The position numbers were made by a program, and so were the translations under genes. From positions 32,001 to 96,000 of IMG/VR virus record IMGVR_UViG_3300036792_000284: DNA of 64,000 nt; one strand, given 5' to 3'. This stretch comes from a virus. Under the pieces are notes generated by a model, which saw only the letters and a program-made list of their open reading frames with translations, was not told the DNA's origin and did not search any database. Within the stretch, counting starts at the first letter, position 1; every line of letters begins with the position of its first letter. Of the stretch, positions 20,157-20,675 are shown piece by piece.

Positions 20157-20268
20157 TGACAGCTCACTCAGGAAACCACGGGAACCCGGTACCCGAGCCT
20201 CTCCTGGGATGGACGTCTCCACTTCCGCTGACTACCGCTTAAAGGCGGCTCCTGCGTCGGAGCTGTCA
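20157..20268 (-). ncRNA. Structured ncRNA copy B (paralog of 20563-20675)
   Basis: Terminal stem TGACAGCTC/GAGCTGTCA; conserved blocks shared with copy A. Confidence 0.8.
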
Positions 20269-20270
20269 AG

Positions 20271-20342
20271 TCGGGACACAGGGACTCGGACCCCGTCTGC
20301 CTGCTCCCAAAGCAGGCGCGCTAACCCTTACGCGATATCCCG
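20271..20342 (-). tRNA. tRNA-Pro(TGG), T-loop TCC
   Basis: CCTGC-TT TGG GA-GCAGG; C55. Confidence 0.88.
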
Positions 20343-20479
20343 TAGACGGGCGGAGTGCTGCCGTTACACCACAGCCCTCAGCTCCTCGGGGCGGCCTACC
20401 CCGGCGTCCCTGGTGGCCACCAGGTCGGCGCGGAACCTTCGCGAGAGCTGCCGGGGACTTGAACCCCGGACTGCCGCCC
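20343..20479 (-). ncRNA. Circularly permuted tRNA-like RNA 1 (YrlA-like topology)
   Basis: 3' half (anticodon 3' strand, T-arm, acceptor 3' strand) precedes the 5' half (acceptor 5' strand, D-arm, anticodon 5' strand); the halves are mutually complementary. Confidence 0.85.
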
Positions 20480-20558
20480 TGGTCGGGGTGGTGAGATTTG
20501 AACTCACGACCTCTTCGTCCCGAACGAAGCGCGCTCGACCAAGCTGCGCTACACCCCG
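20480..20558 (-). tRNA. tRNA-Pro(CGG)
   Basis: CTTCG-TT CGG GA-CGAAG; CCA encoded. Confidence 0.95.
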
Positions 20559-20562
20559 AAGG

Positions 20563-20675
20563 TGACGGTGCACCCAGTCCGCCCGGGGAACCCGGTACCC
20601 CGGCGCAGGCTCAGGCCATGCGTCCATGCTTCGGCCGACCACCTCTTTGCGGAGGCTCCTGCTTCGGCACCGTCA
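20563..20675 (-). ncRNA. Structured ncRNA copy A (paralog of 20157-20268)
   Basis: Terminal stem TGACGGTGC/GCACCGTCA; compensatory changes relative to copy B. Confidence 0.8.

Follow-up and report, generated by a model that had tools for sequence, protein, structure and literature searches.

What are the two folded RNA elements that an uncultured soil phage carries among its proline tRNA genes, and what might they do there? The question arises from a 64,000-nucleotide stretch of viral DNA, hereafter called the window (positions 32,001 to 96,000 of record IMGVR_UViG_3300036792_000284), which is part of a 124-kb IMG/VR record (82% complete, 69% GC). This stretch carries 33 tRNA genes at positions 16233-21421, all on the minus strand. 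Two further elements, A (20563-20675, minus, 113 nt) and B (20157-20268, minus, 112 nt), share the strand of all 33 tRNAs and are packed among them at tRNA-like spacing. Directly upstream of the array is a gene for a large terminase of 654 amino acids (22417-24381, minus) with 46% identity to that of Microbacterium phage Magritte. This protein has no Pfam match and owes its identification as a terminase to annotated phage genes that resemble it. Among cultured phages the nearest is Magritte, followed by Streptomyces phages, and therefore we consider the window phage to be an actinophage.

A and B are paralogs of a previously uncatalogued, 113-base, four-stem RNA that resides among phage proline tRNA genes. 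As the first-pass annotation of this DNA had claimed, they can be aligned from end to end. The alignment has a single gap, and 73 of its 113 columns are identical (64% identity). A covariance model that we built from four copies of the family, termed R1, assigns 116.7 bits to A (E = 1.5e-23) and 116.5 bits to B (E = 1.7e-23), and the next-best match in the window reaches only 17 bits. Several other features that had been read from these two sequences are indeed present: the elements share four invariant blocks, they lie on either side of two tRNA-Pro genes, and their 9-bp terminal stems, UGACGGUGC/GCACCGUCA versus UGACAGCUC/GAGCUGUCA in the minus-strand reading, differ by three pairs that are all compensated (G-C to A-U, U-A to C-G and G-C to U-A). 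The first hairpin within the elements shows a further compensated change, CCUC/GAGG versus CCGC/GCGG.

Are these elements peculiar to a single phage genome? Our searches identified three further copies of the family, two in IMG/VR phages (G001, 146 kb and 97% complete; G002, 151 kb and 100% complete) and one in a soil metagenome contig (L050). Specifically, a scan of IMG/VR viral contigs with the pattern of the 15-mer GGGTACCGGGTTCCC gave 19 matches, of which the two in G001 and G002 are true homologs. A pattern taken from the 5' half of the element, which does not include the 15-mer, again recovered only G001 and G002 from the viral contigs, plus one chance match. Among 41 matches to a two-block pattern in metagenomes, one is a true homolog (L050:12790-12903), and none of the 45 matches to this pattern in 185,579 species genomes is genuine. 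R1 assigns 102-120 bits to the five copies and no more than 17 bits to anything else. With this model, no additional copy was detected in 20 terminase-anchored loci of related phages, in the whole genomes of G001, G002, G005 and G007, in the cultured phages ScoobyDoobyDoo and Magritte, or in 151 sampled Actinomycetes genomes. Similarly, when a 651-nt region was compared by blastn with 50,697 GenBank phage records, the tRNA-Pro genes found matches and the elements did not, and Rfam 15 gives no match on A or B at its gathering thresholds or at E ≤ 10. The Rfam scan and the BLAST, pattern and covariance-model searches together return no known family and three outside homologs. The earlier description of a "new or Y-related" phage noncoding RNA family is therefore supported in its first part, whereas the relationship to Y RNAs is not supported by the tests described below.

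One aspect of these searches affects how the conservation should be read. Two of the outside copies were retrieved by means of the 15-mer, and the third by a pattern that includes the 11-nt core of this 15-mer, TACCGGGTTCC. Because the patterns include blocks that we call invariant, this invariance is partly an effect of the retrieval. Overall identity to A is 80% for the G001 copy, 73% for the L050 copy and 64% for B. Since A is closer to the G001 and L050 copies than to its neighbor B, the two copies in the window either are paralogs of long standing or were acquired separately. Of about 13 distinct related arrays, four carry the element, in four different slots, and about nine lack it. It belongs to the accessory cargo of these phages and not to their core genes. 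Within the collections searched, the family is real but rare and limited to one phage clade; its total of five copies, all from this clade, restricts the weight that can be placed on it.

The five sequences (A, B and the copies from G001, G002 and L050) were folded together with RNAalifold, which yields the helices P1 through P4/P5. The outline is cloverleaf-like, with a closing stem (P1) and a four-way junction from which three arms (P2, P3 and P4/P5) emerge. In A, the 5' strand of P1 (20667-20675, minus) pairs with the 3' strand (20563-20571, minus) to form a 9-bp closing stem that is supported by covariation. The equivalent strands of B, assigned by alignment and covariation, are located at 20260-20268 and 20157-20165 (minus). 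Across the family P1 comprises 9-10 bp, is 100% paired in the five sequences, and has five of nine pairs changed on both sides. The P2 arm of A (20633-20663, minus) is composed of 3+2+5 pairs with the internal loops GCAGGAGCC / GGU.GUC.GC, which are kept, and a variable terminal loop of 6-7 nt. Its helix is 97.8% paired, three of its pairs carry double changes, and one G·U pair becomes A-U in the L050 copy. P3 (20616-20629, minus) is a hairpin with a 5-bp stem, four of whose five pairs are doubly changed, and an invariant GACG tetraloop. The long P4/P5 arm (20572-20615, minus; about 16-18 bp) includes 18 pairs, six of them with double changes, and forms one continuous helix in L050.

The junction is compact. 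P1 and P2 are joined by an invariant CGA strand (20664-20666 in A, minus) and P2 and P3 by an invariant GAA strand (20630-20632, minus), whereas P4/P5 directly adjoins P3 and is separated from P1 by one U. By inspection, we suspect that tandem sheared G·A pairs (G11-A12/G44-A45) could extend P2 into the junction. A kink-turn in P2 was also considered and was rejected by inspection because the non-bulged strand lacks a conserved A. At the tip of the long arm is the 15-mer GGGUACCGGGUUCCC (20586-20600 in A and 20180-20194 in B, minus), which spans the apical loop of 9 nt, UACCGGGUU, together with the G-C pairs that close it. This 15-mer is identical in all five copies, whereas the stem that flanks it is variable. 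The same pattern is evident throughout the element, where junction strands and loops are kept while stems vary.

Several measures show that this architecture exceeds what chance would give. The proposed partners form standard pairs in 93.8% of 209 alignment cells, compared with 39-45% when the partners are slid by one to three columns. Likewise, 19 of 42 pairs are changed on both sides, compared with 1-4 for the slid arrangements, and the covariation score is 0.48 rather than 0.05-0.13. None of 500 column shuffles matches any of the observed pairing or covariation values. Thus, compensating substitutions in three related phage contigs show that the fold of the A/B family is under selection, and the structural selection that the first-pass annotation had proposed from two copies is supported by strong covariation in five. 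The alignment also indicates which strand is used. There are 19 G·U cells when the family is read on the tRNA strand and four when it is read on the opposite strand, and the paired fraction is 93.8% versus 86.6%. This asymmetry implies that the family RNA is read from the tRNA strand.

Given the cloverleaf-like outline, are A and B simply unusual tRNAs? The resemblance to canonical tRNA (RF00005) extends to the four helices, to the genomic packing and probably to the enzymes that process the RNA. However, the closing stem of 9-10 bp exceeds the 7-bp acceptor stem of tRNA, P3 carries a 4-nt loop rather than a 7-nt anticodon loop, and neither a T-loop nor a D-loop consensus is present. Moreover, the junction linkers measure 3, 3, 0 and 1 nt, whereas those of tRNA measure 2, 1, 4-5 and 0 nt. 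Assignment as a tRNA, an intron-containing tRNA or a tmRNA was rejected on the basis of ARAGORN (default, with introns, with -ps80 and in mitochondrial mode) and RF00005, which call only the flanking tRNAs.

The arrays that hold the five copies are syntenic (Trp-Ala-Ala-Pro...-Phe-Gly), and every copy resides in the proline block, though the slots differ. A precedes Pro(CGG), the L050 copy lies between Pro(CGG) and Pro(GGG), the G002 copy lies between Pro(GGG) and Pro(UGG), and both B and the G001 copy lie between Pro(UGG) and Phe. In every copy the next tRNA starts 4-5 nt past P1; specifically, tRNA-Pro(CGG) (20480-20558, minus) is 4 nt downstream of A, and tRNA-Phe (20079-20152, minus) is 4 nt downstream of B. 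In four of the five copies a tRNA-Pro ends 2-3 nt ahead of P1, as exemplified by B, which begins 2 nt past the discriminator of tRNA-Pro(UGG) (20270-20342, minus). The exception is A, which has no tRNA directly upstream and is preceded instead by ...GUUCGA-CU (CGACU), a sequence that looks like a remnant of the same tRNA-Pro/P1 junction. Most tRNAs of the array have no encoded CCA. No promoter-like sites were found across the whole array, and terminator-like matches occur only at 19596, 16158 and 22151, with none inside the proline block.

The carriers have another feature in common. An extra tRNA-Pro(GGG) gene is restricted to the remaining three arrays with the element (G001, G002 and L050), and it is absent from the non-carriers G003, G004, G005, G006, G007, L185 and the L192 group. 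In the window phage, the Pro(GGG) slot is filled by a permuted tRNA-like module (20343-20479). This distribution suggests that the element and tRNA-Pro(GGG) form a linked accessory cassette, but the relatedness of the phages may be what explains why the two occur together. Among protein-coding genes, a comparison of open reading frames in three carrier and four non-carrier genomes revealed no clean carrier-only gene, which points to a partner for the RNA that comes either from the host or from a conserved gene of the phage.

How might an RNA embedded in this manner be produced and used? Most likely, the A/B RNA is an accessory small RNA that is cut from a tRNA precursor by tRNA-processing enzymes and that shows its apical loop to a partner. 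We infer co-transcription, the processing route, action in trans and the identity of the partner, as well as the termini of the RNA and its accumulation, from the sequences and their arrangement. Under this proposal, the element would be transcribed together with the tRNAs. The cut that matures the 3' end of the upstream tRNA-Pro, 2-3 nt ahead of P1, would free the 5' end of the element, and the cut made by RNase P at the next tRNA, 4-5 nt past P1, would free its 3' end. For A, the latter would be the site of tRNA-Pro(CGG). Because A is not directly preceded by a tRNA, its 5' end would have to be generated by another route. P1 would then protect or stabilize both ends of the released RNA. The released RNA would act in trans, with the invariant apical loop, the GACG loop and the purine-rich junction (CGA, GAA and U) making contact with a partner that the host, or else a conserved phage gene, would provide and that is not encoded beside the element. 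This partner would probably be a host protein involved in tRNA or RNA metabolism or in defense, for which the RNA could serve as a decoy or an adaptor. Taken as a whole, the proposal of a phage RNA family that is released by tRNA enzymes and acts in trans on a host partner seems to us about equally apt to prove right or wrong.

A more specific version holds that the element is an RNA cargo of actinophage tRNA arrays that travels with tRNA-Pro(GGG) and that decoys or adapts a host protein for purposes of counter-defense, with a tRNA-targeting defense nuclease or an RNA quality-control factor as examples of candidate targets. We regard this version as unlikely. If it were true, the family would be the first RNA-based accessory cargo known from actinophage tRNA arrays and would constitute an RNA counter-defense of a new structural class.

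Other explanations for the family must be weighed against the release of a trans-acting RNA, and one of them is that the element is a Y RNA. Bacterial Y RNAs are recognized by their binding to Ro60, by a gene location beside rsr and by the sequence GNCGAAN0-1G near the 5' end, and the YrlA type additionally carries a tRNA-like domain (PMC4201824). If A and B belonged to this group, they would bind the Ro60/Rsr ring of the host through the top of P1 and the C-G-A strand, which we consider highly unlikely. We take an equally dim view of the further step in which the RNA tethers the ring to an exonuclease, as bacterial Y RNAs do, beside the YrlA-like mimics of the array. There are similarities. 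At about 110 nt the elements fall within the 80-130 nt range of Y RNAs (PMC4201824), their 5' and 3' ends form a long stem like that of YrlA (RF02553), and they share with YrlA a link to tRNA biology, including a YrlA-like module in the same array. Some copies have a purine-rich ..CGA(A)G.. sequence near the 5' end. A host Ro60 is possible as well, since 15 of the 151 Actinomycetes genomes sampled (about 10%) have a TROVE gene. However, the details diverge. A search of 541 nt with RF02553 leaves A and B without a match even at E ≤ 10, although the model does recognize genuine actinobacterial YrlA RNAs: in five of the eight actinobacterial loci used as controls, RNAs neighboring a TROVE gene reach 36-50 bits. 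The GNCGAAN0-1G sequence is exact at the 5' site of only one of the five copies (GCCGAAG in A), with one mismatch in L050 and two each in B, G001 and G002. In addition, the CGA of the A/B family is an unpaired junction strand, whereas that of the YrlA consensus is paired within the terminal helix, and the five-sequence alignment contains neither the T-arm (GGUUCGA) nor the D-arm (GUAGCUCA..GGUAGAGC) consensus. Gene neighborhoods are no more favorable. The first-pass annotation had proposed to look for a Ro60/TROVE gene in the rest of the genome or in the host; in the phages none appeared, as PF05731 is absent from eight related phage records (G000-G007, six of which are 97-100% complete) while control genomes matched as expected. 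An RtcB gene is absent from the five phage records searched, and R1 finds no look-alike in the neighborhood of ten TROVE genes from actinobacteria, where its top score is 16.9 bits (E = 0.14), to which its lack of matches in the 151 Actinomycetes genomes can be added. With model, motif, domain and gene-neighbor tests all negative, what remains is a loose resemblance, namely a helix-C-C-G-A arrangement on the 5' strand in four of five copies and, in the G002 copy, GGUCCGA, which is the Ro-contact motif of vertebrates.

The remaining alternatives deny the released RNA a role of its own, or deny that there is a released RNA at all. A structured spacer acting in cis could stop similar proline tRNAs from misfolding together or could position processing enzymes. 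Its appeal is that the element is always found within the block of paralogous tRNA-Pro genes, 2-5 nt from tRNAs, and that stem-closed spacers are common, given that an end-to-end stem closes the fold of 29 out of 113 gaps (80-220 nt) between tRNAs in related arrays. Yet most related arrays have Pro(CGG)-Pro(UGG) without the element, some with gaps of 0-10 nt to the neighboring tRNAs. Moreover, an insulator would need only a stable helix and would have no use for the invariant apical motif of 15 nt, the GACG loop or the junction strands, all of which are kept across copies that are just 60-80% identical. We consider this function quite unlikely. A new self-cleaving ribozyme that trims the 3' trailer of the upstream tRNA-Pro has a certain logic, in that HDV-like ribozymes have been reported downstream of phage tRNAs, four of the five copies start 2-3 nt after a tRNA-Pro, and the compact multi-helix junction presents invariant unpaired purines. 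But A has no upstream tRNA to trim, Rfam shows no match at E ≤ 10 to hammerhead, twister, twister-sister, hatchet, pistol or HDV-like ribozymes, and a 9-bp helix locks the 5' end of the element to its 3' end, a layout that is not known from ribozymes that cleave at their own 5' end. The chance that the family is a ribozyme appears very small. Finally, the terminal inverted repeats, the sporadic distribution and the shifting positions within arrays could bring to mind a feature of the DNA, either a palindrome bound by a protein (GGTACC, CCGG) or a miniature transposable element whose terminal inverted repeats span 9 bp. Covariation largely refutes this idea, which we find scarcely credible: the "inverted repeats" differ between copies and yet remain complementary, three internal helices covary as well, and the G·U asymmetry of 19 versus 4 distinguishes one strand from the other. 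Furthermore, there are no target-site duplications, and copies occur inside the tRNA array only, with no other copy in three phage genomes.

If the elements are an accessory RNA released from tRNA precursors, do they have counterparts elsewhere? In phage T4, the tRNA gene cluster also encodes RNAC and RNAD, which are matured with the tRNAs. These RNAs, also called species 1 and 2, are small, stable phage RNAs of still unknown function (PMC9697503). They are the closest analogues of the A/B family by kind, whereas the YrlA tRNA mimics are the closest by context. The likeness to the T4 RNAs is one of kind, and no sequence relation is expected; those RNAs belong to a low-GC enterobacterial phage, whereas the A/B family belongs to one clade of high-GC actinophages and to its proline block.

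Phage tRNA arrays are usually viewed as supplies of tRNA that serve codon usage or anti-defense. The arrays of the window clade also carry folded RNAs that are not tRNAs, including the A/B family, YrlA-like mimics without a Ro60 gene and, in a sister subclade, an RNase P RNA. A and B represent a new family of phage RNAs embedded in tRNA arrays. This family contributes a well-defined motif to RNA family catalogues and offers a concrete, testable candidate RNA for the manipulation of tRNA metabolism or defense in the host.

The RNase P RNA just mentioned is of the bacterial class A and is located at L082:9548-9929 (IMGVR_UViG_3300016445_000011), where its match to RF00010 reaches 113.9 bits (E = 8e-34), above the gathering score of 100. 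It is also present in three near-identical contigs (L083, L087 and L088). In all four contigs it directly follows tRNA-Pro(UGG), which is the slot of B and of the G001 copy, and RF00010 has no match in five records (G000-G004). The possibility that A and B are themselves RNase P RNA or a fragment of it was examined and rejected: RF00010 does not match them, and their local alignments to L082:9501-10070 fall mostly within the range of shuffled sequences. One alignment exceeds this range, over 20 nt that lie just outside the RNase P RNA of L082. An 8-nt complementarity between the apical loop and GAACCCGG of the RNase P RNA is no better than that of shuffled loops, and the complement of the apical loop, which might have indicated an antisense seed, is not repeated in the phage genome.

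The YrlA-like tRNA mimic of the window lies between two tRNA-Ala genes (20932-21074, minus) and matches RF02553 at 20-26 bits. Only its tRNA-like core accounts for this match; it has a 66-nt insert, and the phage has no Ro60 gene. Together with the RNase P RNA in the slot otherwise used by B, this nearby mimic suggests that these arrays collect RNAs tied to tRNA metabolism. Gaps between tRNAs in the window array and in 14 related loci contain many other conserved non-tRNA families, such as one between Trp and Ala(GGC) in 10 loci and a 96-nt family between Leu(CAA) and Gln(CUG) in nine loci. None of these other gap modules carries the motifs of the A/B family. Among them, L007:2225-2325 and L081:9188-9322, both in the gap between Ala(GGC) and Ala(CGC), share a structured module with an 11-pair end-to-end stem that is unrelated to A and B.

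Other small features of the arrays were observed. The 177-nt stretch between tRNA-Ala(CGC) and A includes a 37-codon open reading frame (20689-20802, minus) with a strong ribosome-binding site (GGAGG, 8 nt, ATG), and neither the stretch nor the peptide has a counterpart in six related genomes. The 8-mer GCCGGGGT / GCCGGGGU occurs on the minus strand at 19360-19367, 20398-20405, 20597-20604 and 20976-20983, four sites within 1.7 kb of the array that each fall in a non-tRNA module, and the window as a whole contains 22 occurrences where 7.8 are expected. Because this 8-mer is absent from B and from the G002 and L050 copies, it is not conserved in the family and was not used as evidence. Lastly, a related array encodes a 79-nt tRNA with the anticodon UCA (L078:12440-12518), which ARAGORN labels as SeC and which may be an opal suppressor.
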